A stretch of 64,000 nucleotides of DNA. It comes from an uncultured Gemmatimonadales bacterium (lineage in GTDB: Bacteria > Gemmatimonadota > Gemmatimonadetes > Gemmatimonadales > GWC2-71-9). The stretch is from the NCBI GenBank assembly GCA_963748815.1, contig CAVVKJ010000010.1, positions 960,001-1,024,000 of the forward strand, given 5' to 3'. Below, in pieces: positions 5,067 to 54,690 of the stretch (the stretch's first letter is position 1; the number at the start of each line of letters is the position of its first letter). A program made the translations under genes and the position numbers. The notes below the pieces were generated by a model. That model saw nothing but the letters and a program-made list of their open reading frames with translations. It was not told where the DNA came from and did not search any database.

Positions 5067-5082
5067 GGAGCAGCTGAACCAC

Positions 5083-32908: not shown

Positions 32909-34939
32909 TCAGGCATTCTCCGCGCCCACGAGGGTCGCCTCGTAGCCGGCCTGGGTGCGCCGGGTCTCGGCGATCCCGCCGCCGCCGGGCCACATGGTCA
33001 GGATGCCGCCGACCACCAGCACCATCCCGGCAAACCAGACCCACCAGACCAGCGGATTGATGGTGAAGCGGTACACCGCCTCTTCCGTCCCGTTGACCGA
33101 GCCGGCATAGACGATATAGAGGTCCTCCCGCAGGTCGCTCCGGATGCCGACTTCGGTGGACGGCTCGAAGGTGGGGCGGCCGAAGCTGTCCACGTGCTGG
33201 CGCTTTTCGGACTTCATGACGCCGAGCGACTTGCCGTTGTAGTCGACCTGGACGGTGGCGGCCGACACCACGCGATTGAGGGCGTTGTACTGGGACACCC
33301 CGAGGTGGGTCAGCTTGTAGGTGCCGCCGTAGGGGCTCTGCATCTCGATCGATTCACCGGGCTTCAGCGTGGCTTCCTGGTCGACCCGGAAGGCCATCCC
33401 GGTGAAGGCGATGAACATCAGCAGGATGCCGACGTGCACGATGTAGCCGCCGTACCGGCGCCGGTTGCGGGCGATCAGGTTGAAGAAGGCGGTCGGGATC
33501 GACTCGCCGTGCATCCGGCGGCGGGCCCGGATGCCGCGGTAGAACTCCTGCACCACCGTCCCCATGACGAACGCGCCCAGGGCGACGGTCATGATCGGAT
33601 AGACGTCCCGCATGCCGTCGACGACCAGCGCGAGCGCCGTCACCAGCCCCACCGACACCGGGAAGATGAATTGCCGCTGCAGGTTCCGGGCGGACGCCTT
33701 GCGCCACGCGATCAACGGGCCGATGCCGGTGAGCGCCAGCAGGAAGAGCCCCAGCGGAATATTGACCCGGTTGAAGAAGGGGGGACCCACCGTGATCTTG
33801 GTGCCCCGCACCGCTTCCGAGAGGATCGGGAAGAGCGTGCCCCAGAGCACCGAGAAGGCGATGCCGACCAGCGCCAGGTTGTTGAAGAGGAACGCCGCCT
33901 CGCGGCTCAGCATCGACTCCAGCTTGGCGTCGGGCTCGAGCTCGTCCCACCGGGTGTAGAGCATCGTGAAGCTGAGGACGCCGGCCACCAGCAGGAACGC
34001 GAGGAAGAAGTAGCCGACGTTGGATTGCGTGAAGCTGTGCACGCTGGCAATGACGCCGGACCGGGTGATGAAGGTGCCGAAAATGCTGAGGAGGAAGGTC
34101 GCCACGATGAGCGAAAGGTTCCACCGCTTGAGCATGCCCCGCTTTTCCTGGATCATCACGGAATGCAGGAACGCCGTCATCGTCAGCCACGGCAAGAAGC
34201 TGGCGTTTTCGACCGGGTCCCACGCCCAGTAGCCGCCCCAGCCGAGCTCGACGTACGCCCACCACATGCCGAGGACGATGCCGATCGACAGGAAGACCCA
34301 CGAGACGAGGGTCCACTTCCGGATGGCGACGATCCACCCGCTGTCCAGCCGGCGCCGCAGGAGCGCGGCGATGGCGAACGCGAACGGAATGGTGACGCTG
34401 ATGTACCCGAGATAGAGCATCGGCGGGTGCATGACCATGCCGATGTTCTGGAGCTGCGGGTTGAGCCCGCGGCCGTCCTCGGGAATGAACGCCAGCCGCT
34501 CGAACGGGTTGGCGGCAAAGAGCATCACGATGACGAAGAACACCACCACGATGTTGGTGACGCCCGCCACGTAGGGGAGCAGGTCGGCGTAGCGACGCGA
34601 GGTGATCCACTGGGCCACGGCGGAGAACGACGCCAGCACGACCGCCCAGAAGAGGAGCGACCCCTTCTGCCCGGCCCAGAAGGCCGACACGATGTAATAG
34701 GTGGGCAGGTTCCGGGAAGTGTAGGCCGCCACGTACTCGATGTTGAAGTCGTGGGCGAAGAGTCCCTTCCACAGCGACAGCGCCGCCACCAGGAGCGCGG
34801 CCGCGAGCGCGTAGGACGACCGGATGACGGTCCGTTCAAGGTCGGGGCGGTCCTGCCACTTGCCCGAAAAGGAGAGGACCGCGCCGAAGGTACCGATCAG
34901 GAATGCGACCCACAGCGAGAATTGCCCGAGGAGTGTCAT
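32909..34939 (-). CDS. ccmF: Heme lyase CcmF
   Basis: HPPMLYLGY, WAYVELGWGGYWAWDPVENASFLPW, TRSGVIASVHSF. Confidence 0.97.
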   Translation of the reverse strand: MTLLGQFSLWVAFLIGTFGAVLSFSGKWQDRPDLERTVIRSSYALAAALLVAALSLWKGLFAHDFNIEYVAAYTSRNLPTYYIVSAFWAGQKGSLLFWAVVLASFSAVAQWITSRRYADLLPYVAGVTNIVVVFFVIVMLFAANPFERLAFIPEDGRGLNPQLQNIGMVMHPPMLYLGYISVTIPFAFAIAALLRRRLDSGWIVAIRKWTLVSWVFLSIGIVLGMWWAYVELGWGGYWAWDPVENASFLPWLTMTAFLHSVMIQEKRGMLKRWNLSLIVATFLLSIFGTFITRSGVIASVHSFTQSNVGYFFLAFLLVAGVLSFTMLYTRWDELEPDAKLESMLSREAAFLFNNLALVGIAFSVLWGTLFPILSEAVRGTKITVGPPFFNRVNIPLGLFLLALTGIGPLIAWRKASARNLQRQFIFPVSVGLVTALALVVDGMRDVYPIMTVALGAFVMGTVVQEFYRGIRARRRMHGESIPTAFFNLIARNRRRYGGYIVHVGILLMFIAFTGMAFRVDQEATLKPGESIEMQSPYGGTYKLTHLGVSQYNALNRVVSAATVQVDYNGKSLGVMKSEKRQHVDSFGRPTFEPSTEVGIRSDLREDLYIVYAGSVNGTEEAVYRFTINPLVWWVWFAGMVLVVGGILTMWPGGGGIAETRRTQAGYEATLVGAENA

Positions 34940-34945
34940 CGGGCG

Positions 34946-35365
34946 TCAGGCTGCGGGTGCTTCAGGCGTGGCCTCATAGCGCGAACCGCACTTGGCCAGC
35001 ACGTCGGTGGCGTGGAACACGCCATCGGCGCCGAGACGTCCCTCGACCACCACTTCGATGTCACTGGCGTCGGTGAAGGTGTCCGGCACGAGGCCCCGGT
35101 AGGTCACCGGGTAGACCTGCGTGCCGTCGGTCACCTGGAAGTCCACCGTCTGGGTGGCGGCGTCGCGCACGACCGACCCCGGCACCACGCGGGCGCCCAT
35201 CTTTACGCCGACGTTGTGGAAGGTGGGATCCGCGGAGGCCTTGGAGGCCAGCTCCGTCGGGGTGAGGAAGTAGACGCCCGTCTCCTTGACCCCCTGGAAC
35301 ATCAGGAGCCCGACGCTGCCGACGATCAGCACGGCGCCGAAGAGGAACTTGTGGCCAGGCTTCAT
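34946..35365 (-). CDS. ccmE: Heme chaperone CcmE, CxxxY variant
   Basis: N-terminal TM, YFLTPTE, YRGLVPDTF, VVVEG, VLAKCGSRY. Confidence 0.9.
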   Translation of the reverse strand: MKPGHKFLFGAVLIVGSVGLLMFQGVKETGVYFLTPTELASKASADPTFHNVGVKMGARVVPGSVVRDAATQTVDFQVTDGTQVYPVTYRGLVPDTFTDASDIEVVVEGRLGADGVFHATDVLAKCGSRYEATPEAPAA

Positions 35366-35482
35366 GGTCCCGCTCCCTGCGAATAGTTGGATTCCGACTG
35401 GACTCCTCAACAATCGGCGGGCGGCCCCGCGGGAGCAAGCCCCGAACGGCCGCCTAAGGACTTCTTCACGCCGGCTTTACCC

Positions 35483-37436: not shown

Positions 37437-37437
37437 T

Positions 37438-38798: not shown

Positions 38799-38824
38799 GG
38801 AACGCCTCCTTCAGGTTCAGTCGG

Positions 38825-41107
38825 TCAACGCGCCAGCCGGGCGGCAGCCACCGCGGCCTGTCCAAAGCTGATGCCACCATCATTGGGGCTGAGGCGTCGC
38901 GGCCAGAGCACCGTCATCCCGAATCCCTGCAGCCGGCCCACGAGGGAGGTCAGCAGCCGCGCGTTCTGGAAGGTACCGCCGCCCAGGGTGACGGTGCGGA
39001 TGCCACTCTCCTCTGACACTCGTCGGATCACTTCGGCGGCGGCCCACGCGACGCTGGCGTGAAAATCGGCCGCGAGGTCGGCGATGTCGTCGCCGCGCTG
39101 ACGCCGTGAGCCAAGCACCGCCAGGAGATGCAAAGGATCGATGACCCAGGCCCCCTCGTCGGAGCGCTCCAGTCCCACCCGGATTTCGGAGGCGACCCGC
39201 CGCCCGGCGAGCGATTCAAGTTCCATCGCGGCCTGCCCCTCGTAGTCCGCCTTGAGGCGCAGCCCGAGCACGGCGGCCGCCGCATCGAAGAGCCGGCCCA
39301 TCGACGAGGCCCACGGCGCGTTGACGCCGCGGGTCGCCTGCAGCTCAGCCACCGCGCGTTCCGCCTCCTGGATGCCGTCGAGCGCCAGGGTGAACGCCGG
39401 CCCGAGGTGCGGATCGAGCATCAGGTAGCCGAGGGCGGCGCGCCAGGGGTTGCGGGCCGCGAGGTCGCCGCCCGGAAGCGGGGCAGGGCGCAGGTGGCCG
39501 ACGCGACGGAAGCCGAGCAGGTCGGCCTGCAGCACTTCCCCGCCCCAGACACCGCCATCGGCCCCGTAGCCCACGCCGTCGAAGGCGAGCGCGAGGACCG
39601 GGTCGGTGCGTCCGTGCTCCGCCATGACGGCGGCGGCGTGCGCGTGGTGGTGCTGGACCGGTTCGAGGACCCGAAGTCCCATTTCCTGCGCAATGCGGGT
39701 CGAGAAATATCCCGGATGCAGATCGTGGACGACGGCCTCGGGCGCCAGGCGGAAGAGCGCCTGGAACCGGGCGAGCGCCGACCGAAAGTGTTCGAGCGTC
39801 TCCAGGTTCTCGAGATCGCCGATGTGCTGACTGACCCAGGCCCGCGAGCCGTGCACGAGGGTGAAGGTGTTCTTCAGGTGCGGCCCGACCGCCAGGAACG
39901 GCAACGGGCTCGCGACCGGCAGGTCGAGGGGGAGGGGCGCGTACCCGCGCGCACGCCGCAACAGGATCGGGCCGATCTCGGTGGACCGCACGACCGAATC
40001 GTCGTACCGGGCCACGATCTCGCGGTCGTGGAGGAGAAAGCCGTCGGCGATCCCCTCCAGCCGGGCCAGCGCCTCCGCATTGCCGGTGGCGATCGGTTCC
40101 TCGCTCACGTTGCCGCTGGTCATCACGAGCGGGCGCCGCACCCGGTCGAGGAGGAGGTTATGCAGCGGCGTGGTCGGGAGCATGACGCCCACCCACGCGA
40201 GCCCGGGGGCGACGCCCTCTGCCAGCGGATCCCGATCGCCCCGCTCGAGGAGGACGATCGGACGCCTGGGTGAACGGAGCAGGATCGCCTCGTCCCGGCC
40301 CACGACCCCGAGCTTCCCCGCCTCGTCCAGCGTTCGGACCATGACGGCGAGCGGCTTCGCCTCGCGCCGCTTCCGCCGCCGGAGCTGGGCCACCGCCGAG
40401 CTGTTGGTGGCATCCACCGCGAGCTGGAAGCCGCCGACGCCCTTCAGCGCGACGACACCGCCCTTGAACAGTGTCAGCGCCGCCGCGGAGAGCGCCTCCT
40501 CCGACCCGGCGGTGTGGGAAACCCCGTCCGATTGGGCGTACCAGAGGCGCGGACCGCAGGCGGGGCAGCTGTTCGTCTCCGAGTGGTGCCGCCGGTCGCC
40601 GGGCGAGTCGTACTCGCGCTGGCAGGCGGCGCACTGCGTGAAGGCCGCCATGCTGGTGCGCGCACGATCGTACGGCATCGATTCGATGACGGTGAAGCGC
40701 GGGCCGCAGTCGGTGCAGGTGATGAACGGGTAGCCGTACCGGCGGTCGGCCGGATCCTTCAATTCTGCCTCGCAGGCCGCGCAGACCGCCACGTCGGGCG
40801 AGACCGGCTGCCGGCGGTCGGGCTGGTCCCGGCTGACCTCGATCGAAAACCCCGAGCAGCCCGTCACGGCGCGTGGCTCGACCGCGATCCGTTCGATCTG
40901 CGCGAGAGGTGGCGCCTCGAGCTCGAGCGCGGCCAGGAACTCCTGCAGCGCACCGGGAGCACCCTCGACCTCGATCAGAACTTCCCCGGAGGCGTTGAGG
41001 ACCCAGCCGTCGAGTTGGTGGCGCACGGCCAGCCGATGCACAAAGGGGCGGAAACCCACCCCCTGTACAACGCCAGTGACTCGGACGCGCGCGCCCCTCC
41101 CGGTCGT
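38825..41107 (-). CDS. hypF: Carbamoyltransferase HypF (true start unclear, near 41110)
   Basis: VTGVVQGVGFRPFV acylphosphatase domain, zinc fingers CTDCGPR and CPACGP, HDLHP, QHHHAH, PNDGGISFGQ. Confidence 0.95.
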   Translation of the reverse strand, partial: TTGRGARVRVTGVVQGVGFRPFVHRLAVRHQLDGWVLNASGEVLIEVEGAPGALQEFLAALELEAPPLAQIERIAVEPRAVTGCSGFSIEVSRDQPDRRQPVSPDVAVCAACEAELKDPADRRYGYPFITCTDCGPRFTVIESMPYDRARTSMAAFTQCAACQREYDSPGDRRHHSETNSCPACGPRLWYAQSDGVSHTAGSEEALSAAALTLFKGGVVALKGVGGFQLAVDATNSSAVAQLRRRKRREAKPLAVMVRTLDEAGKLGVVGRDEAILLRSPRRPIVLLERGDRDPLAEGVAPGLAWVGVMLPTTPLHNLLLDRVRRPLVMTSGNVSEEPIATGNAEALARLEGIADGFLLHDREIVARYDDSVVRSTEIGPILLRRARGYAPLPLDLPVASPLPFLAVGPHLKNTFTLVHGSRAWVSQHIGDLENLETLEHFRSALARFQALFRLAPEAVVHDLHPGYFSTRIAQEMGLRVLEPVQHHHAHAAAVMAEHGRTDPVLALAFDGVGYGADGGVWGGEVLQADLLGFRRVGHLRPAPLPGGDLAARNPWRAALGYLMLDPHLGPAFTLALDGIQEAERAVAELQATRGVNAPWASSMGRLFDAAAAVLGLRLKADYEGQAAMELESLAGRRVASEIRVGLERSDEGAWVIDPLHLLAVLGSRRQRGDDIADLAADFHASVAWAAAEVIRRVSEESGIRTVTLGGGTFQNARLLTSLVGRLQGFGMTVLWPRRLSPNDGGISFGQAAVAAARLAR

Positions 41108-41779
41108 TCAGACCGATACGGGGCGCCGCGCCAGCTGCCGGAGAAAGTTGAACCACGTGTCGAGCCCCTCACCGGTAAGGGCGGAGGTCCGGAAGAACTC
41201 CAGCTCCGGATTCACCTCGCGCGCGAAGCCCAGCGCCTGCTCCACGTCGAACGGCACGTACGGGAGCAGGTCGACCTTGGTCAGGACGGCGTACCGGGCC
41301 TGCCGGAACACCTTGGGATACTTGAGCGGCTTGTCCTCGCCTTCGGTGACCGAGAAGAGCACCACCTTGGCGTCCTCCCCGAGGTCCCAGCTCGCGGGGC
41401 ACACCAGGTTGCCGACATTTTCCACGAAGAGCAGGTCGGTGGCGGCCAGGTCGATGGCCTCCAGGGCGGTGTCCACTTGTTTGGCGTCGAGGTGGCAGGC
41501 GCCGCCGGTCACCACCGCCTGCACCAGGCGCGTCGTGTGGCGGGCCAGGCGGTCGGCGTCGTTCTGGGTCTGGACATCGCCGGTGACCACGGCCATCCGG
41601 AGCTCCTCGCCGAGGGCGGCAAGGGTGCGCTCGAGGAGGAGCGTCTTTCCGGAGCCGGGGGAGGAGACGAAGTTGAGCGCTGGCACGCCGGCCGCGGCGA
41701 GCCGCGCCCGGACCGTCTCGGCGATCTCGTTGTTGCGAGCCATGACCGGCTCTCGGAGTTCAATGGTCCTGACGGTCAT
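41108..41779 (-). CDS. hypB: Nickel-insertion GTPase HypB
   Basis: SSPGSGKT, TGGACHLDA, ENVGNLVCP, EGEDKPLKYP. Confidence 0.97.
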   Translation of the reverse strand: MTVRTIELREPVMARNNEIAETVRARLAAAGVPALNFVSSPGSGKTLLLERTLAALGEELRMAVVTGDVQTQNDADRLARHTTRLVQAVVTGGACHLDAKQVDTALEAIDLAATDLLFVENVGNLVCPASWDLGEDAKVVLFSVTEGEDKPLKYPKVFRQARYAVLTKVDLLPYVPFDVEQALGFAREVNPELEFFRTSALTGEGLDTWFNFLRQLARRPVSV

Positions 41780-42020
41780 CGTCCAGCTCCAGGTAAGTGA
41801 CGCGGAGGACATCGCCCGCGCAGCGAGTCATCTCCGGACGCGCCTTGTGGAACGGCGGCGCCGCGAGGAGCGCCTCGAGGCAGAAGAGGAGATTGTCGGG
41901 CTCGAGGCCGGAGTCGTCGCCGACATCGAGCCCGACGGTGATGAGCTGCGGAAGTTCTGCCGGGGAGAGCCGCGCCTCCGCCAGGCGGCAGACCTCCACC
42001 GCCACGCTCATTTCATGCAT
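41760..42020 (-). CDS. hypA: HypA nickel chaperone, short form without the zinc-finger domain
   Basis: MHEMS nickel motif, VGDDSGLEPDNLLFC, GDVLRVTYLE; 86 aa, no CxxC pairs. Confidence 0.8.
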   Translation of the reverse strand: MHEMSVAVEVCRLAEARLSPAELPQLITVGLDVGDDSGLEPDNLLFCLEALLAAPPFHKARPEMTRCAGDVLRVTYLELDDDRQDH

Positions 42021-42522
42021 GGGCCGGCGCGCGCGGCGAGACCCGGATGCCCCAATCCCTGAGTTGACCCGCCATCCGCTCCGGCAGGCGGTGCGTCCCC
42101 CGCTCCACCGCCGGTGTCATGTCGGACCGCATCTCGATCGTGACCGGCTCGACGCCGAGCGCCACGGTCATCTGCGGGAGGGTGCCCCGCACTTGCGCGA
42201 GGGTCAACACGTCGACGATATCGACCTGGTGCGCCGAGAGCTTCTGCCCCAGCACCCTGGGCAGGTCGGGTCCGTCCACGAAGACGTCCGCGCCGGGCGC
42301 GAGCCCGGCACGGATGGCATCGACCAGCAGCAGCTTCCCGGCGGACTCGATGTACGGGAGGAGGTTCATCCCCCAGGTTCCCCCGTCCATGAGCTCGACG
42401 CCCTCGCCCACCTCGAACTGGTCACGGAATCGCTCCAGCGCGATGATGCCGACGCCGTCGTCACCCATGATCGGGTTGCCGAGGCCCAGCACGAGGACCG
42501 GCCGGACACTACTCGTCCACAT
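42013..42522 (-). CDS. Hydrogenase maturation endopeptidase (HyaD/HybD family)
   Basis: VLGLGNPIMGDDGVG, DGGT, VDA, SAHQ. Confidence 0.93.
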   Translation of the reverse strand: MWTSSVRPVLVLGLGNPIMGDDGVGIIALERFRDQFEVGEGVELMDGGTWGMNLLPYIESAGKLLLVDAIRAGLAPGADVFVDGPDLPRVLGQKLSAHQVDIVDVLTLAQVRGTLPQMTVALGVEPVTIEMRSDMTPAVERGTHRLPERMAGQLRDWGIRVSPRAPAHA

Positions 42523-43276
42523 AGTCGTGGTCGGCGCGAACGTAGTGACCACCGCTGACGATCCCCGACAGCCCGCCGCCGTGCTCGGTGATTTCCTTCC
42601 GCATCACGAGATAGATGTGGATGATGGGGAAGATGATGAACCACCAGACGCAGAGATGGTGCACGAGCCGGACCATCTGGATGCCGCCGACGGCGTTGAT
42701 CATCGGCTGCGTGAGGGAGTACCAGAATCCGCCAGGACTGGCCTGGCCGTACATCGAGAATCCGGTGACCACCACGACCACCGACACGACGTAGGTGAAG
42801 GTGTAGCTCAATTGCTGCAGCGGATTGTGCCCGATGTAGTGCACGCCCTCGCCCTCGCCGATCATCAGGTAGTACTTCACCTGCTTCCACAGGTTGACCC
42901 AGTCCCGCACGCGGATCGGGAAGAGCGCGGGCAGCCGCTCGAACTGGTTGCCCGCGAAGAGCCAGTACACCCGCACGAGGCCGGTCATCACAAACACGCC
43001 AGCGGCGATGTAGTGCGCCAGGCGGATGTAGCCCATCAGGTACTGCGGCGGCCCCCCGGTGGTCAGGAAATAGGGGCGGCCGATGTAGAGGCCGGTCACG
43101 ATCAGGACGACGATCGCGAGGGCCGCGATCCAGTGCATGGCGCGGAGCGGGGCGCCCCACGGTTCCACCCAACGGTAGTTTCCACTGGGGGGCGCGAACC
43201 GCGCCCCGAGGGGGAAGAGCGGCGAGTCGGCCATTGGCGGCGGCGCGGGGCCGTGCCGCGGAGTGGATGTCGTCAT
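42509..43276 (-). CDS. Ni/Fe-hydrogenase cytochrome b subunit (HyaC-type)
   Basis: RAMHW, RLAHY, GHNPLQQ, RLVHH..IHIY heme-ligand histidines; four TM helices. Confidence 0.93.
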   Translation of the reverse strand: MTTSTPRHGPAPPPMADSPLFPLGARFAPPSGNYRWVEPWGAPLRAMHWIAALAIVVLIVTGLYIGRPYFLTTGGPPQYLMGYIRLAHYIAAGVFVMTGLVRVYWLFAGNQFERLPALFPIRVRDWVNLWKQVKYYLMIGEGEGVHYIGHNPLQQLSYTFTYVVSVVVVVTGFSMYGQASPGGFWYSLTQPMINAVGGIQMVRLVHHLCVWWFIIFPIIHIYLVMRKEITEHGGGLSGIVSGGHYVRADHDYVDE

Positions 43277-44988
43277 TGGACCTTGACCTCCACGACCGGA
43301 TGTCCGTCGGCATCGAGCACGTGCACGCCGCACGACATGCAGGGATCAAAGGAGTGAATGGTGCGCAGGATCTCGAGTGGTTGCTCCGGCCGCACCAAGG
43401 GGTGGTGGTCCATGAGCGCCGCCTCGTACGGGCCGGGCACGCCCTGCTCGTCCCTCGGCGAGCAGTTCCAGGTGCTCGGCACGACGCACTGATACCGCGA
43501 AATCTTGCCGTCCTCGATCTGGACCCAGTGGCCGAGGGCGCCACGCGCGGCGTCGAGGTAGCCGTAACCCTGGGCCGACTTCGGCCAGGTTTCCGGATCC
43601 CACTTGTCGCCGTTGAAGGTGCGGGTGTCGCCGTTCTTGATGCGGTTCACCAGCTGGCCGTACCAGTTCTGCATCTGGTTGGCCAGCAGGACCGTCTCCA
43701 TGCAGCGGGCGCCGACGCGGCCGAGCGTGGAGAAGAGGGCGGCAGGTGGCACATCGAGCCGGGTCAGGAGTTCGGTGACGATTTCCTTGATGTCCTGCTG
43801 CCCGGCGGCGTAGCCGACCAGCATCCGCGAGAGAGGACCGACCTCCATGGGGCGCCCGTCGTACCGCGGCGACTTCATCCAGGTGTACTTCTTCTCGTCC
43901 TGCAGGTAGGTCCACGGCGTCGGCGGGCCGGTGTACTTCGGCACCGTCTCCCCTTCCCACGGGTGGAGCGAAGCGGCGTCGCCGCCGGAGTACTCGTACC
44001 AGGAACTGGTGATGCCTTCCGTCACCAGCGTGTGGTCGTAGGGGTAGACCTTCGAGAGGTCCCGGTTCAGGACGATCCCGCGCGGGAAGTAGAGCGAATC
44101 GAGGTCGTTGCTGTCCACCGAGGCGTACTCGCCCACGGTCAGGTAGTTGCCGGTGCCGCCGCCGATGGCGCCCCAGTCCTTGTAGAACCCGGCGATGGCC
44201 TGCACGTCGGGCCAGTACACCTCGTCGACGAAGCGCTTGGCGCGGGTGATCATCGCCTGCACATCGGCGAGCCGCGCCGCGTTGATGGTGGCGGTGTCGT
44301 TGAGGTTGATGGCGCTGGCCATGCCGCCGACGAGGAAATTCGGGTGCGGATTCTTGCCGCCGAAGATGGTGTGGAGCCGGATGACGTCCTTCTGCCAGTC
44401 GAGCGCCTCGAGGTAATGCGCCACCGCCAGCAGGTTGACCTCCGGCGGGAGCTTGTAGGCGGGGTGGCCCCAGTACCCGTTGGTGAAGATGCCGAGCTGG
44501 CCGCCGGCGGCGAAGGTCTTGATCCGGTTCTGCACTTCCGCGAAGTAGGTGGCGGAGTTGTTCGGCCAGGGGGAGATGCTCTTGGCGATGGCGGCGGTCT
44601 TGGCCGGATCGGCGCTGAGCGAGCTGATGATGTCCACCCAGTCGAGCGCGTGCAGGTGGTAGAAGTGGATGACGTGGTCCTGGATGGTCTGCATCCCGTG
44701 GACCAGGTTGCGGATGAGGGTGGCGTTGGGCGGGATGGTGATGCCCAGCGCGTCCTCCACCGCACGACAGGAGGCCACGGCGTGCACGACCGTGCAGACG
44801 CCACAGATGCGCTGGGTGAAGGCCCAGGCGTCGCGCGGGTCGCGCCCCGTCATGATGGTCTCGATGCCGCGGAACTGCGTGGACGATGCCCAGGCCGTGG
44901 AGATCATCCCGTTCTCGGCCTGCGCCTCGATCCGGAGGTGTCCCTCGATCCGGGTGATGGGGTCTACGACCACTTTAGTCCTGGCCAT
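43273..44988 (-). CDS. Group 1 [NiFe]-hydrogenase large subunit
   Basis: DPITRIEGH, L1 QRICGVCTVVH, L2 SFDPCMSCGVH plus a cleavable C-terminal extension. Confidence 0.97.
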   Translation of the reverse strand: MARTKVVVDPITRIEGHLRIEAQAENGMISTAWASSTQFRGIETIMTGRDPRDAWAFTQRICGVCTVVHAVASCRAVEDALGITIPPNATLIRNLVHGMQTIQDHVIHFYHLHALDWVDIISSLSADPAKTAAIAKSISPWPNNSATYFAEVQNRIKTFAAGGQLGIFTNGYWGHPAYKLPPEVNLLAVAHYLEALDWQKDVIRLHTIFGGKNPHPNFLVGGMASAINLNDTATINAARLADVQAMITRAKRFVDEVYWPDVQAIAGFYKDWGAIGGGTGNYLTVGEYASVDSNDLDSLYFPRGIVLNRDLSKVYPYDHTLVTEGITSSWYEYSGGDAASLHPWEGETVPKYTGPPTPWTYLQDEKKYTWMKSPRYDGRPMEVGPLSRMLVGYAAGQQDIKEIVTELLTRLDVPPAALFSTLGRVGARCMETVLLANQMQNWYGQLVNRIKNGDTRTFNGDKWDPETWPKSAQGYGYLDAARGALGHWVQIEDGKISRYQCVVPSTWNCSPRDEQGVPGPYEAALMDHHPLVRPEQPLEILRTIHSFDPCMSCGVHVLDADGHPVVEVKVQ

Positions 44989-46111
44989 CGTGACCTCCCT
45001 CCGCCGCCGCAGCCGCCTTCTTGCGCGAGCGAATCTGGTGTACGGTTGTGGCGGCGGCATGGGCGGCCACGCCGGCAATGGCACCGGCGGCCAACGCGGC
45101 GCCGATGGTGTCCGCCGTCTGCTCGATGCCGATTCCGGCCACGTTGGGGAGCCGGGTGTAGAACGGGGTCATCGTGTCCCAGAACCCGCGCTCGGTGCAT
45201 CCGATGCAGGGATGCCCGGCGCCGATGGGCCAACTGGTCTTCATGTTCCACATGAAGATCGGACAGGGGCTGAAGGTCGCCGGACCCTTGCACCCCACCT
45301 TATACAGGCACCACCCCTTGCGGGCGGCTTCGTCGTCAAACTCCTCCACGTACTGGCCGGCGTCGAAGTTGGCGCGGCGCGGGCACTGGTCGTGAATCCG
45401 CGCGCCGTAGGCGAAGAGCGGACGACCGTCGGCGTCGAGTTCCGGGAGCCCGCCGAAGGTCAGGTAGTGCACCAGCGTCGCGGTCACCGTCTCGGCGATC
45501 GGGGGGCACCCGGTCAGGTGGACCACCGGCTTGTCCTTGATGATCTCGGCGATGCCCACCGCCCCGGTGGGGTTCGGCTTGGCGGCCTGGACGCTGCCCC
45601 AATGGGCGCAGGCGCCCACGCCGATGACGGCCTTGGCGCCCGCGGCGGCCTCGATCAGCACCTCCTTGGCGGTCCGGCCACCGATCACGGTATAGATGCC
45701 GTCCTCCGCCAGCGGCACCGATCCGGTCACCACCAGGAGGTACTCCCCCATGTTGGCCTTCATCGAGGCGTGCAGCGCATCCTCCGCCGCCGTGCCCGAT
45801 GCCGCCATGAGGGTGTGGGAGTAGTCGAGGGAGACGATGTTGAGGATCAGCTCGCCGATGGAGGGATCGGCGCTGCGCAGGACACTCTCGACGCAGCCGG
45901 TGCATTCCTGCAGCTGGATCCAGATGACCACCGGCCGTTTGACGCCTTCCAGCGCGGCGGCCACGCGCGGGGCGGCCATTTCGGTCAGGCCGAGGAGGAC
46001 GGCCATCTGGCCGCAGAACTCGAGGAACTCGCGGCGCGACACGCCGCTCGCCTCGAGATGCTCTCCAAGGGTCTGGTCCTTGGCCCAGGGGAACTGCGTC
46101 GGAAAGAACAT
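44975..46111 (-). CDS. Group 1 [NiFe]-hydrogenase small subunit, Tat-exported with C-terminal TM anchor
   Basis: SRREFLEFC, ECTGCVES, GACAHWG, GCPP, HDQCPRR..CLYKVGC, HPCIGC. Confidence 0.97.
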   Translation of the reverse strand: MFFPTQFPWAKDQTLGEHLEASGVSRREFLEFCGQMAVLLGLTEMAAPRVAAALEGVKRPVVIWIQLQECTGCVESVLRSADPSIGELILNIVSLDYSHTLMAASGTAAEDALHASMKANMGEYLLVVTGSVPLAEDGIYTVIGGRTAKEVLIEAAAGAKAVIGVGACAHWGSVQAAKPNPTGAVGIAEIIKDKPVVHLTGCPPIAETVTATLVHYLTFGGLPELDADGRPLFAYGARIHDQCPRRANFDAGQYVEEFDDEAARKGWCLYKVGCKGPATFSPCPIFMWNMKTSWPIGAGHPCIGCTERGFWDTMTPFYTRLPNVAGIGIEQTADTIGAALAAGAIAGVAAHAAATTVHQIRSRKKAAAAAEGGHDGQD

Positions 46112-46299
46112 CGTGTCGACCTCCGGTCCACTGGTGCGGGATGGACCGGCGGCGGGAGGAGCCCGCCGTCGGGGGGAATCCAACTGCCGCAACATCTGTG
46201 GCGGCCGATAAATGCGGTCTGAATAGTTTCTGAAGATGCGTTCAGTATTTCTACGTACTGACACGAAGGAGTTCCGGGCCCATCACCAGGAGTCGCCTC

Positions 46300-46496: not shown

Positions 46497-48180
46497 ATGA
46501 CGTCTCGCACCGTTCGCTCCCGCTCCTTCGCCGCCATCCTCGGCACCCTGGCGCTCTTCGTACTGGCCGGCTGCACCGAGACCAACACCGAGTATGTCGA
46601 GCGGCCGCAGTTCAACCCGCCGCCGGACTCGGTCAACGGCTACATGGGCTACTACAACGCCGCGACGAAGCAGACCACCTGCGGCAACTGCCACTCGGGG
46701 TATCAGGGCGAGTGGGTCACGACCGCGCACGCCGACGCATACGACGGGCTGGTCAACTCCGGCCACGCCCAGTCGTACTGCTTCGGCTGTCATACCGTGA
46801 GCGACCTCGGCAACACCGGCTCCGCCTCGGGCGAGCCGGGCGGGTGGGGCGTCGTCGAGAGCCCGGCCTATCACGACGTGCAGTGCGAGAGCTGCCACGG
46901 CCCGGGCTACGACCACGTGTCGAACCCGACCGACGACAACCATCCGCTCGCGCGCGCCGGCCTCAAGGACACCGTGGCCAGCTGCGGCGGTTGCCACAGC
47001 GGCGAGCACGAGCCCTTCACGGAGCAGTGGTCGCAGACCGGCCACGCCGACTCCACGGCCAACGCCAGCCCGGCCGGCAACGCGGCCGGCGGGTGCACGG
47101 CCTGCCACGAAGGTCGGACCGCCATGGCCCGATTCAACGGCGGCAAGCCGAGCACCTACATTGAGCTCGATTCTGTCGGCGAGATCACCACGCTGCCGCC
47201 GGCCACCTGCGCCGTCTGCCACGACCCGCACGGGAGCCCCTACCAGGCACAGCTGCGGCTGCCGGTGGATGCCCCCGACCTCACCGCCAACCTCTGCATG
47301 AACTGCCACAACCGGGGCACGGCGCCGCCGAACAACTTCTCCAATTCGACCGCGACCAGCACCAAGCGCGGCGCGCACGCGTCGCAGGGGCCGATCGTGC
47401 TCGGGCAGGGCGCCGGATACATCCCACGGTACTTCTCCTACGACACCGTCCGGGCGTACACGTCGCACGCCTCCATCAACAACCCGCGGCTTTGCGCCGG
47501 CTGCCACGTCAACTCCTTCGAAGTGACCGACGCGAACGGGTTCGTGTTCCAGTCGGTCGGACACCTCTTCTCGCCCGATCCCTGCCTCGACGCCAGTGGC
47601 GTCCCGACTACCGACAACAGCTTGCGCCTACCTGCCCAGTACCACCCGCAACTGGACCGGCTGTCTCGCCGCCGGCTGCCATGCCAGCGCCGACGTGGCG
47701 GCCACCGCGCTCACCAACAGCCGAAACCTGGTGGCCAGCCTCGCCGACCAGCTCTGGAACGACGTGAACCCGACGCTCAACAACGGCGGTGAGCCGTACA
47801 TGGATGCGGGGGACACTGGCGCGCTGGTTTACCTGCTCTTCACAGCCGGCAATCCGTATACGATGATCAATGCCACGGATAGCGTGCAGGCCTTCAACGC
47901 CAATGACAACATCGTCTCCCCGGCGGAAGGCGCCCTCTTCAACATCATGATGTTCGCCGAGGACCTGTACGATCACAACGACGGCTCCTACGGCGTCCAC
48001 AATCCCTTCTACTACCAGTCGCTGCTCGCGGCCAGCATCGCCGAAGTCAACGACGTCTACAATGCGTTCCTCCCGAGTCCGCCGAGCCCCGCCATCAAGG
48101 CGCTCATGGACAAGGCGCTGAGCCGCCCGGGGGTCACCTACAATCCACCGTCACGCACGAAGTTGAGCGCCGCACGTTAG
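46497..48180 (+). CDS. Lipoprotein multiheme cytochrome c, about 9 hemes (one frameshift near 47622)
   Basis: Lipobox LAGC; 8 CxxCH plus CLAAGCH; C-terminal helical region with DGSYGVHNP. Confidence 0.88.
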
Positions 48181-48184
48181 CCGC

Positions 48185-50185
48185 GTGATCGCCCAGACAC
48201 TGCACTCGCTCTATCCGACCATGGCTCCCGGCACCACGCCGGGAGCCATGGTCGATTCTTTGCAGGCCGCCCAGGCCGACAGCGGACTGGTGCCCACGCC
48301 GCTGCCGGACCCGGTGGTCAACCTGGTCCAGTGGATCTTCCAGCGCCCGGGCTGGGTCATGGTCTCGGGGATCGTGATTGGCGCCGTCGTCGGCGTCGTG
48401 GCCGCCTGGTTCCTCTGGAAGCACCGCAGGGACATCTGGACCTGGCTCGCCACCCGGAGCCGCGGCACCAAGCTCCTGATGGTCTCGACCGCGGGTGTGT
48501 TCCTCCTCGCCGCCGGCACGGTGGGCTACAAGGTCAACCACTACATGGAACACGACAACGACTTCTGTCGCGGTTGCCATGTGTTCATTCCGTACGGCCA
48601 GCCGTTCGTCCGGCCCGATACCGGCACCTACCTGATCGTCAACCAGCTCGAGGGGAAGCACGACACCCTCGAGTGCCACGACTGCCACCTCCCCGACAAG
48701 ATCGCCCAGGCGCAGGAGCTGATCCTGTGGATGGTGGACCGGCCCGACAAGGTGCCGGAACACGCCAAGGTGCCGCCCACGGTCTGCAAGAGCTGCCACG
48801 AATCGGGGGAGGCCAAGGAAACCTGGCAGGAAATCGTCACCACCGCAGGGCACCGGGTCCACTTCGAGTCTGATTCGCTGAAGGACAAGAATCTGGAGTG
48901 CCTGACTTGCCACGCGCGGTCGGCGCACCGCTTCGAACCGGTGGACTCCACCTGCGCCCAGCAGGGATGTCACCTGACCGACGAGGTGACCATCAAGCTC
49001 GGCAAGATGACCGACGCGGTGGGGCTCCACTGTGCCGTCTGCCACGAGTTCACCGCCGCAGTGCCCAGACTGGCCACTGTTGATTCAGCCTCCGGGACCC
49101 TGGTCCCCGGGGACAACCAGTGCTTCAGCTGCCACGAAATGCAGCAGCGGCTCCAGGACTTCGACCCGACGCATGACCCGCATAACGGGAAGTGCGGGAT
49201 GTGCCACAACCCGCACACCAACGTCCAGCCGGACGACGCCCTCAAGAGCTGCGCGACAGCCGCCTGCCACGGCGACTGGCGCAAGGTCGAGTTCCACACC
49301 GGGGCGGCGCACCGCAAGGGGATCGAGGACTGCGAAACGTGCCACACGCCGCATGCCGCACGGGTGGACGCCAGCGCCTGCGCCAGTTGCCACGAACGGG
49401 TGCGCGGATCGGCCACCGGAAAGGCGGCGGGACGAAAGCCTCCCCTGCCCTTCGACACCACCAAGGCGCTCCGGTCGAGTTCGGCGCAGCCAGACCCGAC
49501 CAGCCCCCACGGAAAGGGCGATGCGCCGCCGGATGACGACCCTCCGGCGGCGTTGGTCTCTCAGGCCCCCGCCGACAGCTTCGAGCACGCCCGGCACAAG
49601 GACCTGAGCTGCATCACCTGCCACACGACCTCCAACCCGACCTCGACCCTGAACTTTGCCGCGCCGCGCGGGTGCCAGATCTGTCATCACACCGCCACCG
49701 CGAAGCGCGATTGCGCCGTCTGTCACACCCCCGCCGAGCAGGGCCCCGAGACGGTGCGCGTCACGGTCACCGTGCCGGAACATGCCCCCCGGCCCCGGGA
49801 GGTGTCGTTCGAGCACGCCAAGCACACCGAGGTGGCGTGCAAGGAGTGCCACGCCACGCCGGTGACGCTCGCCCCCGAGGCGCCGGTCAAGGGGTGCATC
49901 TCCTGCCACGACCAGCACCACACCGAGGCGAAGGACTGCGCCGCCTGTCACGCCGGCGGCGACATCGACACCCCCCATGCGCCCCCCGCCGTCGCCCATG
50001 AAGGGTGCGACGCCTGTCATACTCCGGCGCGTATCGCGCAGCTGACGCCGTCGCGGCCGTTCTGCCTGACCTGCCACCAGCCGCAGCGAGCCGATCACTA
50101 CCCGACGAAGGAGTGCACGCCGTGCCACCTCGACGCGACGCCGGCCGAATGGCGGTCGCGACTGGTGGGTGGGAGGGGCATGTGA
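48185..50185 (+). CDS. Membrane-anchored NapC/NirT-like cytochrome fused to a long multiheme extension (about 20 hemes)
   Basis: Two N-terminal TM helices, then FCRGCH and CHDCHLP; 18 CxxCH plus 2 CxxxxCH in total. Confidence 0.88.
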   Translation: MIAQTLHSLYPTMAPGTTPGAMVDSLQAAQADSGLVPTPLPDPVVNLVQWIFQRPGWVMVSGIVIGAVVGVVAAWFLWKHRRDIWTWLATRSRGTKLLMVSTAGVFLLAAGTVGYKVNHYMEHDNDFCRGCHVFIPYGQPFVRPDTGTYLIVNQLEGKHDTLECHDCHLPDKIAQAQELILWMVDRPDKVPEHAKVPPTVCKSCHESGEAKETWQEIVTTAGHRVHFESDSLKDKNLECLTCHARSAHRFEPVDSTCAQQGCHLTDEVTIKLGKMTDAVGLHCAVCHEFTAAVPRLATVDSASGTLVPGDNQCFSCHEMQQRLQDFDPTHDPHNGKCGMCHNPHTNVQPDDALKSCATAACHGDWRKVEFHTGAAHRKGIEDCETCHTPHAARVDASACASCHERVRGSATGKAAGRKPPLPFDTTKALRSSSAQPDPTSPHGKGDAPPDDDPPAALVSQAPADSFEHARHKDLSCITCHTTSNPTSTLNFAAPRGCQICHHTATAKRDCAVCHTPAEQGPETVRVTVTVPEHAPRPREVSFEHAKHTEVACKECHATPVTLAPEAPVKGCISCHDQHHTEAKDCAACHAGGDIDTPHAPPAVAHEGCDACHTPARIAQLTPSRPFCLTCHQPQRADHYPTKECTPCHLDATPAEWRSRLVGGRGM

Positions 50186-51672
50186 ACCTGCGGAGCGCCG
50201 CCGCCGCGGTCGTGCTGGTGGTTTTCCTCCCGGCCGCCGGTTCGGCCCAGGGCTACAACCTTCGCCTCACGGGCGGCATCCAGGGGGTGAGCTTCCGCGG
50301 CTACACCGCGGACAGCATCCCCATCGACAGCGTGGTCACCACCGGCAACGGAAGCCTCGAGACCCCCACCGGCTACGCCGTGTCCTGCACCTCGGGCGTG
50401 GCCTACTGCAACTACTGGGTCCCGGGTCCCATCAACACCACTGCCCCCGCCGTGGCGCAGGCCGCGCTGACGATGTGGGGCCTCGGCCTCCCCGGCCTGC
50501 GCGTGCAGGTCAACGGCTACGCCACCACCGACTTCAACACCGCCGCCTCCTGGCCGGGCACCTCGCCCAACTTCCAGCTCATCGAGGGCTACGCCGAATA
50601 CGCCGCCCCCGCCTGGACGCTCGTCGCCGGGCGCAAGCTCATTGCCGGGCGCCTGGGGGCGTACGGCTTCGACGGCGGGCAACTCACGGGACGGCTCCCG
50701 AGTGCCGGGCTGGCGCTCTCGGGCTATGTCGGCTGGGGGCTGGCGCAGGGCTCGAACCTCCTCTTCACCTCCAGCGAGGCGAATCCCCAGGAGGACTACC
50801 AGCCGGCGGAGAGCCCGATCGTTGCCGGCTTGATCGGCACCTGGAATTCGCCGCACGCTGAACTGAGCGCCGAATACCGGAGGGAAGTGGACCAGACCAC
50901 CGACTACTTCGGGTCCGAGCGGATCGCCGCGTCGGCGACCCTCCGACCCTACGGAAGCTGGAGTCTGGTCGGCGGCGCGATTTACGACATGGCCAGCGGG
51001 CTGTGGGGCAGCGCAGACGCCGCTCTCCGCTTCGCCACCCCCAAGCTTGGCGTGGTGGCCGGGTATCGGCGCTACGCCCCGTTCTATGAGCTCTGGACCG
51101 TCTGGGGCGCCTTCAGTCCCGTACCGTACAACGCCCTCTACGGGTCCGTGTCGTACCAGGCCACGAAGCGGCTCCAGCTCCGGCTCCGCGGGGAGACCTA
51201 CCAGTTCGAGGATTCCGAGACCCTGACGCCGCTGGTTTCCATCGGCGACTCGGGATGGCGGTATTCGCTCGGTGGGACCTACCAGATTTCGAACGCCTGG
51301 CAGGCCCAACTCGGGTATGAGAACGAGTTCGGCACCGGCGCCTCGTCGAGCGGCTGGGACGGCAACGTCACCTTCTCGCCCAACGGCAAGTACTCCATCA
51401 TGGTGTACGGGAATTCGCTGTCACGACCGCTGGAATACCGCTGGGACCAGTCGGTGGTCCTCGTGTACGGGATGCAGGCCTCCGTGGTGGCGCGGGACAA
51501 CGTGAGCGTCGCCTTCACGATGGCCCGGTACGATGAAAACCGGGAACGTCCCGACGCCGCATCGTTCGAGTGGGACCAGATCCGCTTCGGGGCCAAGGTC
51601 GTCATGACCTTCAGCTCGGCCGACCGGCTGCCCCTCCCCAAGGCCATCACCAACCGACCGGCGGGGTACTGA
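50182..51672 (+). CDS. Outer-membrane beta-barrel protein (putative cytochrome porin)
   Basis: GTG overlapping the upstream stop, signal peptide ending GSAQG, 496 aa rich in G/Y/W/S/T with alternating amphipathic strands, no heme motifs, sits between cytochrome genes. Confidence 0.75.
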   Translation: MNLRSAAAAVVLVVFLPAAGSAQGYNLRLTGGIQGVSFRGYTADSIPIDSVVTTGNGSLETPTGYAVSCTSGVAYCNYWVPGPINTTAPAVAQAALTMWGLGLPGLRVQVNGYATTDFNTAASWPGTSPNFQLIEGYAEYAAPAWTLVAGRKLIAGRLGAYGFDGGQLTGRLPSAGLALSGYVGWGLAQGSNLLFTSSEANPQEDYQPAESPIVAGLIGTWNSPHAELSAEYRREVDQTTDYFGSERIAASATLRPYGSWSLVGGAIYDMASGLWGSADAALRFATPKLGVVAGYRRYAPFYELWTVWGAFSPVPYNALYGSVSYQATKRLQLRLRGETYQFEDSETLTPLVSIGDSGWRYSLGGTYQISNAWQAQLGYENEFGTGASSSGWDGNVTFSPNGKYSIMVYGNSLSRPLEYRWDQSVVLVYGMQASVVARDNVSVAFTMARYDENRERPDAASFEWDQIRFGAKVVMTFSSADRLPLPKAITNRPAGY

Positions 51673-51673
51673 A

Positions 51674-53113
51674 ATGCGTCGCGTACTCCTGCCCCTGATA
51701 CTGGCGCTCGCCGCGCTCTCGGCCCCCGCGGCCGCGCAGCAGGGTGACCATTTCGACCACCCGCAGCACGCCAAGGTCTTCCCGACCTGCACCGCCTGTC
51801 ATGCCGGCGCTCTCAATCCCTCCCGGCCGCTCCTCCCCTCCGGGCAATCGTGCGCCAGCTGCCACGACGGCACCATCGAGCGCCGGGTGGACTGGAAGGC
51901 GCCCGCGCCGACGGGAACCAACCTTCGATTCACGCACGCCGAGCACAGGCAGGAGGTGCTCGCCAAGGCAGGAGGCGACTCCACGCTCACCTGCCAGGCC
52001 TGCCACATTCCCGAGGGCAGCGCCTGGATGACGGTGGAGCCGGCGGTCATGCCGCAGTGCCTGGCCTGTCACGGCGTCAAGGCGGCGCACCTCGCCGCCC
52101 CCGACACCGCGTGCGCCACCTGCCACCTCACGCTGGCGCAGGCGACCACGCTGACCTCGGCGCAGGTGAAGGAGTTCCCGGCACCGCCGTCGCATGAGGC
52201 GGCCGGGTTCATGGGCGCCGACGGGCACGGCGCGCAGGCGCAGGCCGGCACCGGGCCGACGACCTACCTCGTGGCACCAAGCTGCGCCACCTGCCACGCG
52301 CAGGAGTTCTGCATTACCTGTCACGTGAACGCCCCGGAAACACCGACCATCCAGGCGCTGGCCCAGGACCCCCGATCGCTCGCCATTCCGGCGCGTCTCG
52401 AGGAACCCGCCACGCACGAGCAGCCCAATTTCGTGACGACCCACGGCAAGTCGGCGCGCAAGAGTGCCGCCGCCTGCCAGACCTGTCACACCCAGGAGAG
52501 CTGCCTCTCCTGTCACATCACGCCGCCGCGGTCGGTCGCCACGCTCTACGCGAGCGGTCCCGGTCGGGGGGCGGGCGCCCAGGTGGAGCGGAGCCGTCCG
52601 GCCAGCCACATGGCCGACTTCAGCACCATCCACTCGCCAGTGGCCAACAGCAACCCGCAGTCGTGCGAGGGGTGCCACGCGCGCCCGCAGTGCCTCGATT
52701 GCCATCGCGGGACGCCCGACCGCACGCCGCAGTACCACCCGCAGACCTTCCTCGAGCGGCATCCGGCGGCGGCGTACGCGCGCGAGACCAACTGCAGCGA
52801 CTGCCACAACCCCGGCGCCTTCTGCCAGACCTGTCACGTACAGTCGGGCCTCGGCAGCCCCAAGGGAGCGCTCCAGGCGGGCTACCATGACGCCTACCCG
52901 GCCTTCCTGCTCAACCACGGCCAGGCGGCCCGCCAGAGCCTCGAAAGCTGCACCTCGTGTCACGTCGAGAAGGACTGCCTGAGCTGCCACTCGGCGCTCT
53001 ACGGCCGCGGCTTCAACCCGCACGGCCCCGGGTTCGACCCCGAGCAGCTCCGCTCCAAGAACCCGCAGATGTGCACTGTATGTCACGGACAGCGGGTGCC
53101 GAGTTCGAAGTGA
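51674..53113 (+). CDS. Secreted 16-heme cytochrome c
   Basis: Sec signal ending AAAQQ; 16 CxxCH motifs. Confidence 0.92.
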   Translation: MRRVLLPLILALAALSAPAAAQQGDHFDHPQHAKVFPTCTACHAGALNPSRPLLPSGQSCASCHDGTIERRVDWKAPAPTGTNLRFTHAEHRQEVLAKAGGDSTLTCQACHIPEGSAWMTVEPAVMPQCLACHGVKAAHLAAPDTACATCHLTLAQATTLTSAQVKEFPAPPSHEAAGFMGADGHGAQAQAGTGPTTYLVAPSCATCHAQEFCITCHVNAPETPTIQALAQDPRSLAIPARLEEPATHEQPNFVTTHGKSARKSAAACQTCHTQESCLSCHITPPRSVATLYASGPGRGAGAQVERSRPASHMADFSTIHSPVANSNPQSCEGCHARPQCLDCHRGTPDRTPQYHPQTFLERHPAAAYARETNCSDCHNPGAFCQTCHVQSGLGSPKGALQAGYHDAYPAFLLNHGQAARQSLESCTSCHVEKDCLSCHSALYGRGFNPHGPGFDPEQLRSKNPQMCTVCHGQRVPSSK

Positions 53114-53778: not shown

Positions 53779-54690
53779 ATGGCCACGAAGTTCGCGCAGG
53801 GGTTCTGGCGGCTCGCCGATCCGAAGATTTCGCTCGCCTCCGCCGCCGGCATGCTGCTGGGAGCCTCCTCCGCGGCCGCTGCCGGACCGATCGCGATCGG
53901 CTGGCTCCTGCTCACGGTGCTGGGGATCTTCGCGGTGGAGGTGGCAAAGAACGCCTCTGGAGAAGTGTACGACTGGGACTCCGGCACCGACCTCAAGGTG
54001 CGGGACGAGGACCGCAGCCCATTCTCAGGGGGCAAGCGCGTGCTCGTGGACGAATTGCTCACGCGAGGCCAGACCTGGGGAATCGCCCTCGGCGGCTACC
54101 TGATCGGCGCGGCGGCGGGGCTGGTGATCGTGGGATGGAGGGAGCCCACGGTGCTCTGGTTCGGGATGGCGGGAATGGCCATCGCCTTCTGCTATCACGC
54201 CCCGCCCTTCCGATTCAGCTATCGCGGCCTCGGGGAACTCGCGGTGGCCATCAGCTACGGACCGCTGGTCTGCGTCGGTACCTACCTGGTGCAGCGCGGG
54301 GCAATGCCGATAGAAATCATCCTGCTTTCGCTCCCGCTCGGCATCCTGATCGCCGCTTTCCTCTGGATCAACGAGTTTCCTGACTACTCCGCCGATGCCC
54401 TCTCCGGCAAGCGTACGCTGGTGGTGCGCCTCGGCCGCGCCCGGGCCGCCCGGGGGTTTGCGTGGCTCGGCGTGACGGCCGCCCTGATCCTGGTGTTCCT
54501 GCCGGCCGCGGGCGTTCCAGCGACGGTCTGGCTCGGCGGCGTCGCCGCGCTGCGCTACATCCCGGCCGCACGGATCCTGCTGGCCACTCCGGAGGACACC
54601 TCCCGAGTTATTCCCGCCCAGGCGATGGCGCTGCAGGCCTTCCTGCTCTACGCCGCCGGCGCCTCGGTCGGGATGCTCATCGGGCGGTGA
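53779..54690 (+). CDS. menA: UbiA-family prenyltransferase, MenA-like (DHNA prenyltransferase)
   Basis: YDWDSGTD, SPFSGG, YHAPPFRFSYRGLGE, NEFPDYSADALSGKRTLVVRLG. Confidence 0.8.
   Translation: MATKFAQGFWRLADPKISLASAAGMLLGASSAAAAGPIAIGWLLLTVLGIFAVEVAKNASGEVYDWDSGTDLKVRDEDRSPFSGGKRVLVDELLTRGQTWGIALGGYLIGAAAGLVIVGWREPTVLWFGMAGMAIAFCYHAPPFRFSYRGLGELAVAISYGPLVCVGTYLVQRGAMPIEIILLSLPLGILIAAFLWINEFPDYSADALSGKRTLVVRLGRARAARGFAWLGVTAALILVFLPAAGVPATVWLGGVAALRYIPAARILLATPEDTSRVIPAQAMALQAFLLYAAGASVGMLIGR

Follow-up and report, generated by a model that had tools for sequence, protein, structure and literature searches.

Can one compact operon of an uncultured Gemmatimonadales bacterium carry electrons across the entire cell envelope? 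The question is raised by four genes, here named A to D, on the plus strand at positions 46497-53113 of a 64,000-nucleotide stretch of DNA (the window, G000:C10:960001-1024000). The genome of 3.16 Mb is 86% complete. A preliminary description, made from the DNA alone, had proposed a self-contained conduit from the quinone pool to the cell surface, consisting of three multiheme cytochromes and a beta-barrel. The analysis supported this proposal overall. A self-contained conduit that transfers electrons outward from quinol to an acceptor outside of the cell is given a probability of about 0.6. Passage through the outer membrane by C and D, in either direction, is considered highly probable.

Operon structure and heme content

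The open reading frames (ORFs) and the intergenic gaps of 4, -4 and 1 nt were confirmed as described, and so was the heme content. Nine motifs were counted in the lipoprotein A, 20 in the membrane-anchored B, none in C and 16 in the secreted D. The total of 45 comprises 42 CxxCH and three CX4CH motifs. They are not due to chance, since only nine segments with at least two CxxCH exist in a six-frame translation of the whole genome, and three of these are A, B and D.

Gene C, a predicted 22-strand barrel

Gene C encodes a protein of 496 amino acids with a signal peptide and without a Pfam or NCBIfam family above cut-off. An AlphaFold2 model based on a 135-row alignment has a high confidence (predicted local distance difference test, pLDDT, 90.4; predicted template modelling score, pTM, 0.82) and presents a plug-less barrel of 22 strands; the preliminary description had anticipated a barrel. 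Structural neighbours are barrels of 22-24 strands (Z 17-18). The MtrB structure aligned with Z 15.6 over 356 residues (root-mean-square deviation, rmsd, 6.0). In the PDB, the C profile found no chain at E<=1. The MtrB/PioB-type family PF11854 had no match in C, in 44 diverse members of its family or in the genome, and one of the 44 passed a generic porin model. An assignment to MtrB was rejected for the strand number (22, not 26-28) and for the lack of PF11854 and PDB profile matches. TonB-dependent receptors and ushers were rejected as well: the fold matches reflect the number of strands, the model is plug-less and, as controls in hhalign, two of the genome's own TonB receptors reached only 0.9% and 0.5%.

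A relation was found within the genome. Among 16,200 ORFs, the second-best match of the C profile (E 3.9e-4) was the barrel of a second multiheme cluster on contig C5. This PCC3-type porin aligned with C in hhalign at 88.6% over 332 columns. Porins of the porin-cytochrome (Pcc) systems have 18-22 strands (PMC4245776), and a hidden Markov model based on OmbB had previously retrieved a PCC3-like porin (PMC7399161). On account of the link to the C5 porin, this retrieval and the strand range, C probably belongs with the Pcc/PCC3 porins as a remote branch, placed via the PCC3-type porin. The preliminary description had regarded barrel size and heme counts as unlike the decaheme MtrA/MtrB design. 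The difference to MtrB stands with 22 against 26 strands; the number is within the Pcc range and a PCC3-type porin is remotely related, which makes the design less unprecedented.

Weak matches were also obtained in other classes. Six of 15 such distant barrels were fetched, and all six adjoin cytochromes with 10-14 hemes. As an alignment, they match C at 99.6%. A profile search with the six yielded 11 proteins, all unnamed, and did not connect them to any named Pcc porin. Atlas look-alikes of a distant barrel include Thermodesulfobacteriota, and a cluster look-up with 10 distant barrels gave a single taxon name, Gemmatimonadaceae. A near-invariant cysteine pair in the first long loop (mature C residues 48 and 55), probably a disulfide, is missing in the distant barrels. 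Divergent from one of the distant barrels of another class lies a gene for an 8-heme cytochrome (L145:9359-11416), the C-terminus of which resembles a secretion-sorting domain.

Gene D and the predicted complex with C

The 16 CxxCH motifs of D are densely packed, with 30 amino acids per heme. The protein has 17 further histidines, nearly all conserved, which suggests from the sequence that its hemes are bis-His wire hemes. HmcA was rejected as an identity of D: the score was 19 bits against a cut-off of 400, and the c3-type likeness is confined to the N-terminal 120 residues. Variants of D with 12-18 hemes exist in the family.

Complex predictions placed D in the lumen of C. Three runs scored 0.42, 0.82 and 0.84 (median 0.82), and the best of three controls scored 0.00. 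These scores express the confidence of the model, not binding. The mark applied to them is attained by 116 of 157 solved and 2 of 215 mismatched pairs, a calibration that is rough for the alignments used. The runs agreed in at least 65% of the contacts, with a partner pLDDT of at least 69. In the model, mature D residues 288-448, carrying hemes 10-16, contact 21 of the 22 barrel strands. Along the D sequence, the closest pairs between C and D shift from mid-strand to the long loops. Because of this progression, the C-terminal hemes would face outward and hemes 1-9 would be located in the periplasm. The barrel thus appears able to host a cytochrome, as the preliminary description had supposed.

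Gene A, a nine-heme lipoprotein

The reading frame of gene A is broken by a +1 frameshift near 47620 into ORFs at 46497-47792 and 47596-48180. This is very likely an assembly error, because a 460-nt contig of sequencing run X2 (with one other mismatch) has no extra base at this site, because relatives are intact and because other genes of the assembly are fragmented, a cbb3-type oxidase into five pieces and a nosZ-like gene into three. Among nine same-genus loci that span the whole of A, six have a single ORF with all nine motifs and three are broken elsewhere. With the X2 contig and these whole copies, a true pseudogenisation is unlikely.

The lipobox cysteine is near invariant. In the PDB, the A profile found OmhA first (3.9e-18) and OcwA next (2.1e-15), followed by MtrA (2.1e-11) and HAO (identities according to PMC9250108 and PMC6703420). 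A structure model, built on the intact copy of the relative L022 (pLDDT 66.9), aligned with OmhA at Z 11.6 (336 residues, rmsd 4.7) and with OcwA at Z 11.4 (325 residues, rmsd 4.4). Other folds scored lower: ONR 8.5, NrfA 8.1 and MccA 7.0. The nine hemes are arranged in a c554 module and an NrfA-like module, followed by a C-terminal helical bundle, as in the OcwA/OmhA clade. The clade is also characterised by two penta-coordinate hemes with a non-bonding distal histidine; in A, eight histidine columns outside of the motifs are conserved to at least 70% (apo model and alignment). The catalytic CxxCK motif is absent from A; every motif ends in histidine. By profile and model, the nearest matches of A are OcwA and OmhA, surface Fe(III) reductases of Gram-positive bacteria. 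At the cell surface, OcwA acts as the terminal reductase for iron oxides and electrodes (PMC6703420). A would be located at the cell surface. The gene is duplicated in L043 and L154 (in tandem) and in G044 and G046, comparable to the multiple surface cytochromes of known metal reducers.

Gene B, a membrane-headed 20-heme protein

Two hydrophobic helices of B precede an NrfH/NapC-like head, the profile of which found NrfH as the sole PDB match (5.7e-6). PF03264 was detected in 24 of 25 B members at E<=0.01 (best 1.9e-9). The methionine of the NrfH-type CxxCHxM motif is a heme ligand. Among 96 copies of B, this position is occupied by methionine in 53, phenylalanine in 42 and arginine in one. 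In clusters without B, another protein takes its place; it has 22 hemes, a more distinct NrfH head (NrfH at 3.2e-13) and CxxCHxM in 14 of 14 matches.

B is likely an inner-membrane anchored wire and may oxidise quinol. Concerning the quinone end of the proposed conduit, the preliminary description was on weaker ground: in this genome, the quinone link is a weak NapC/NirT-type match. The dimensions would be suitable. Ten hemes of MtrA are described to span about 100 Å, and the periplasm is quoted at 170 Å. By this measure the 16 distal hemes of B and the nine unshielded hemes of D could cross the periplasm, presumably with a direct contact between B and D.

Distribution and co-occurrence

The barrel was present in 42 of 61 near-relative genomes. 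Within the phylum, 151 of 301 genomes with at least 85% completeness encode it (133 strong and 18 weak matches), with 88 of 125 in this family. In GTDB, 496 stretches matched; locus counts were taken from the best 80 of them, further limited to loci with enough flank. Of these best 80, 76 had titles beginning with Gemmatimonad and four had other labels. Close copies in L082, L113, L131 and L062 (43-76% identity) stem from records labelled Vicinamibacterales, Bacillota and proteobacterium.

The synteny survey revealed a fixed core. D follows C in 79 of 79 GTDB loci (one of the 80 was dropped for its short flank), in 14 of 14 class-level loci and in 37 of 37 loci of relatives (one of 38 dropped). 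In loci with enough upstream flank, A was present in 50/56 GTDB, 10/13 class-level and 27/30 relative loci, and B or the 22-heme substitute in 56/56, 11/13 and 28/30, respectively; there is a slight overlap between the sets, and the profiles were built from the relative set. In the variant clusters L034, L035, L038, L040, L042, L067, L157 and L159, B is replaced by 9-, 22- (NrfH-headed) and 11-heme proteins. These variants sometimes add a 19-heme protein and a shortened 12-heme D, so that the genes upstream vary as modules and barrel and D form a constant core.

At the genome level, A occurs in 40 of the 42 genomes with the barrel and in 0 of the 19 without it. The corresponding counts are 42/42 and 2/19 for D (the two being partial matches) and 33/42 and 0/19 for the B head; the profiles stem from barrel-adjacent genes of the same genomes, only the negative side is a test, and kin are not independent. 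A is retained in genomes without B, among them G024, G025, G029, G032, G035, G039 and G055.

Direction of electron flow and alternative functions

In the favoured mechanism, membrane quinol would reduce B. Organic substrates would supply the quinol, and in this genus H2 would do so as well, via the neighbouring hydrogenase. B would hand the electrons to D across the periplasm, and D would carry them through the barrel C. Lipoprotein A would receive them from D and, under low oxygen, reduce extracellular acceptors such as Fe(III) and Mn(IV) oxides or humics. We infer an outward direction with H2 as one of the donors. A quinol-fed pathway fits the neighbouring genes, an uptake hydrogenase, a MenA-like gene and ccmEF.

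Several observations speak against this mechanism, in addition to the shared origin of the co-occurrence profiles. The score of the C and D complex might partly mirror a likeness to the solved MtrAB. The model of A is of middling quality, and in Foldseek OcwA was on top at an E of a mere 0.08, with no match at E<=0.001. GspK of type II secretion was not found in this genome, and the route of A to the surface is thus only putative. This copy of B stays below the PF03264 cut-off (22.3 against 24.1 bits), a genome-wide search with this family does not pick it up, and its heme-1 motif is CxxCHxF in place of the CxxCHxM of NrfH. The uptake hydrogenase adjoins 11 of 26 relative loci, and only 9 of 48 GTDB and 1 of 13 class-level loci, so the link is mostly genus-specific. 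Aerobic oxidases and an ACIII-like cluster make an inward flow possible, and OcwA also reduces nitrite and hydroxylamine (PMC6703420).

The last two observations lead to alternative functions. The same conduit might mainly work inward: reduced humics, Fe(II) or conductive minerals would donate electrons that pass via A and D into the respiration of O2 or N2O. Besides the ACIII-like cluster, the genome encodes aa3- and cbb3-type oxidases and a nosZ-like gene. Porin-cytochrome systems and CymA-type proteins can operate in both directions (PMC6295460), and the remote relative PCC3 has been described from iron oxidisers (PMC5566968). Against this, the closest characterised relatives of A are terminal reductases, an uptake hydrogenase and a MenA-like gene adjoin the operon in this genus, and RuBisCO was not found in the 86%-complete genome. 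Mainly inward flow is judged unlikely.

Slightly less probable still is a periplasmic A that forms an NrfHA-like pair with B and reduces a soluble compound, for example nitrite or hydroxylamine, leaving C and D as a separate, MtrAB-like conduit of two parts. The NrfA-family fold of A and the NrfH-like head of B would suit such a pair, as would the nitrite and hydroxylamine reduction by OcwA. This genome has no match to NrfA (PF02335), and the missing GspK is in line with a periplasmic location. Other features of A speak against such a pair: it has no CxxCK heme, is nearer to the surface proteins OcwA and OmhA than to NrfA and ONR, tracks the barrel (40/42 against 0/19 genomes) and is kept where B is absent. 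It is improbable that the cytochromes chiefly store electrons, like a capacitor, or connect cells during redox swings and hardly respire minerals. Such a role would fit the 45 hemes, and about 54 more in the C5 cluster, in an organism with aerobic oxidases whose DNA is best shared by sequencing runs of biofilter and activated-sludge metagenomes. For storage, a barrel threaded by a heme chain and an OcwA-like lipoprotein would be superfluous.

Relation to known conduits

Family and PDB profile searches matched the set with none of the known periplasmic enzyme complexes, in agreement with the preliminary description. The predicted working resembles MtrCAB with CymA, or a Pcc system, yet the operon belongs to neither the Mtr nor the PCC3 group.

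Geobacter-type Pcc systems (OmbB-OmaB-OmcB and others, including the 14-heme type of Ignavibacterium) share a porin of 18-22 strands beside a periplasmic multiheme cytochrome and a lipoprotein cytochrome, which in Pcc often has atypical CXnCH motifs (PMC4245776). The distant relatives of C precede D-like proteins of 11-14 hemes and another multiheme protein, as in Pcc. The Pcc systems differ from the operon in the periplasmic cytochrome, with 5-14 hemes reported for Pcc and 16 in D. The operon also includes a 20-heme NrfH-headed membrane protein, and its lipoprotein is OcwA/OmhA-like. Gemmatimonadota are absent from the Pcc hosts reported in the available part of PMC4245776.

MtrCAB/MtoAB (Shewanella, 6R2Q) has a barrel threaded by a periplasmic multiheme cytochrome, a lipoprotein cytochrome and a quinol oxidase of the NapC family, CymA. 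The MtrB/PioB barrels have 26-28 strands (26 in MtrB), and MtrA and MtrC are decahemes, compared to 9, 20 and 16 hemes here. C has no PF11854/MtrB match, and the fold of A is not MtrC-like. TIGR03508 gave 32-34 bits for A and B, far below its cut-off of 192, and no match for D. Towards DmsE/MtrA, D either stays below the cut-off or has no match. The quinol-side protein is encoded within the operon and lengthened by 16 hemes.

PCC3 (He et al. 2017) is likewise a single cluster proposed to span the entire envelope with very large multiheme proteins, and its porin is remotely related to C. It is defined by an inner-membrane protein with SGxxG and two WX3HX13H motifs (PMC5566968). This protein and the repetitive 21/34-heme pair are missing in the operon and lie in the separate cluster on C5 (G000:C5:264379-273892, L059:4380-13893; PCC3-type part G000:C5:266923-273892). 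The C5 cluster comprises a ferredoxin/FAD oxidoreductase, the inner-membrane protein with SGxxG and two WX3HX13H, proteins with 23 and about 31 hemes and the barrel. In L091, L112, L126 and L140, the four-gene operon is closely followed by pairs of 23- and 17-19-heme proteins akin to those of C5.

OcwA (Thermincola potens, 6I5B) and OmhA (Carboxydothermus ferrireducens, 6QVM) share with A the c554-like N-terminal and NrfA-like modules and the C-terminal helices, and OcwA also the nine hemes. They are cell-wall proteins of Gram-positive bacteria without a porin, and the identity to A is 20-24% over the aligned part. The Desulfovibrio ferrophilus clusters DFE_448-451 and DFE_461-465 are also clusters of large multiheme cytochromes for extracellular electron exchange; they involve NHL beta-propeller proteins and not a barrel (PMC5815863).

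For Gemmatimonadota metagenome-assembled genomes, three MtrABC operons and matches to Cyc2 and DFE_461-465 homologs have been reported (PMC11316326; also PMC13055281). The lineage had been called not established as electroactive. This holds for physiology, as no demonstration was found in the available sources; genomic hints at iron cycling are in print (PMC11316326). In the available literature on porin-cytochromes and electron transfer in Gemmatimonadota, no description of this operon was found. One study of a Gemmatimonadales-rich site reported 36 PCC clusters (PMC13264449), and its Figure 6, an image, might include a copy; the available text of its supplement contains no match for PCC, multiheme or porin. 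General background is provided by PMC6295460, PMC12133095, PMC7096707, PMC11492766 and PMC12545173.

Genomic context

Table 1. Operon genes, elements within them and neighbouring genes, with positions in the window
Feature	Position	Strand	Description
Gene A	46497..48180	+	Nine-heme lipoprotein; lipobox LAGC; 8 CxxCH and 1 CX4CH; OcwA/OmhA-like fold; split by a +1 frameshift near 47620
Gene B	48185..50185	+	Two predicted transmembrane helices; NrfH/NapC-like head; 18 CxxCH and 2 CX4CH; likely inner-membrane anchored wire
17-bp hairpin	48216..48254	+	Start of gene B; pair-preserving changes; in 12/12 same-genus copies examined
Gene C	50182..51672	+	Signal peptide; predicted 22-strand outer-membrane beta-barrel; plug domain absent; above cut-off, no match to a curated family
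Gene D	51674..53113	+	Sec-type signal; 16 CxxCH; c3/c7-like N-terminal part; diheme repeats
Gene D, hemes 10-16	52601..53083	+	Predicted inside the barrel lumen
Uptake [NiFe]-hydrogenase (small, large, cytochrome b)	42509..46264	-	Divergent from the operon; likely a route for electron donation, with the linkage mostly seen in this genus
UbiA-family prenyltransferase	53779..54690	+	Best matches MenA, below cut-off; 3' of the operon in this genus
ccmE and ccmF	32909..35413	-	Heme-attachment genes, needed for cytochrome maturation

Genes B and C start with GTG. The start of B is uncertain, because the conserved hairpin spans two in-frame ATGs (Table 1). Compared to block shuffles, the hairpin has z-scores of -5.2 to -8.2 in the 12 same-genus copies, and 30 windows in the gene body range from -2.1 to +1.9. 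Pair-preserving changes were seen in L027, L028 and L057. The hairpin may tune the expression of A relative to B, C and D. A sigma-70 scan upstream of A found no promoter, and the operon had no plasmid match. The sequencing runs listed as carrying it include no RNA run, a result that is not informative on expression.

The operon is part of a redox island with the uptake hydrogenase and its apparent maturation genes (36366-46264) and ccmEF (32909-36286). ccmF adjoins 3/26 relative, 9/48 GTDB and 2/13 class-level loci. Two Hsp20 genes and the MenA-like gene are located 3' of the operon in this genus. A cbb3-type oxidase with associated genes at about 2000-10100 of the window is in many fragments, probably due to assembly errors, as is the nosZ-like gene on contig C11.

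Significance for Gemmatimonadota

Gemmatimonadota are usually regarded as aerobic heterotrophs. The widest reading of the data is that about half of this phylum, which is abundant in soils and sediments, carries an unrecognised, modular wire that spans the envelope and is encoded in a single operon. The phylum would then respire iron, manganese and humics to a large extent that has been overlooked, coupled to H2 oxidation in this genus. The wire would consist of an NrfH-fused 20-heme arm, a barrel of a new 22-strand family with a 16-heme cytochrome threaded through it, and a surface reductase of the type found in Gram-positive cell walls. As a whole, this reading remains tentative, with a chance somewhat below even. 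Conduit screens based on known families would likely miss the barrel, because it falls into no Pfam or NCBIfam family and does not match MtrB. The barrel profile offers a specific marker for metatranscriptomes and enrichments.

If the operon works as predicted, Gemmatimonadota contribute to the redox cycling of iron, manganese and humics. The operon would join an OcwA-type reductase to a porin conduit, with the quinol-side and periplasm-crossing steps fused in one protein. Its breadth across the phylum and this combination of parts are what set it apart.

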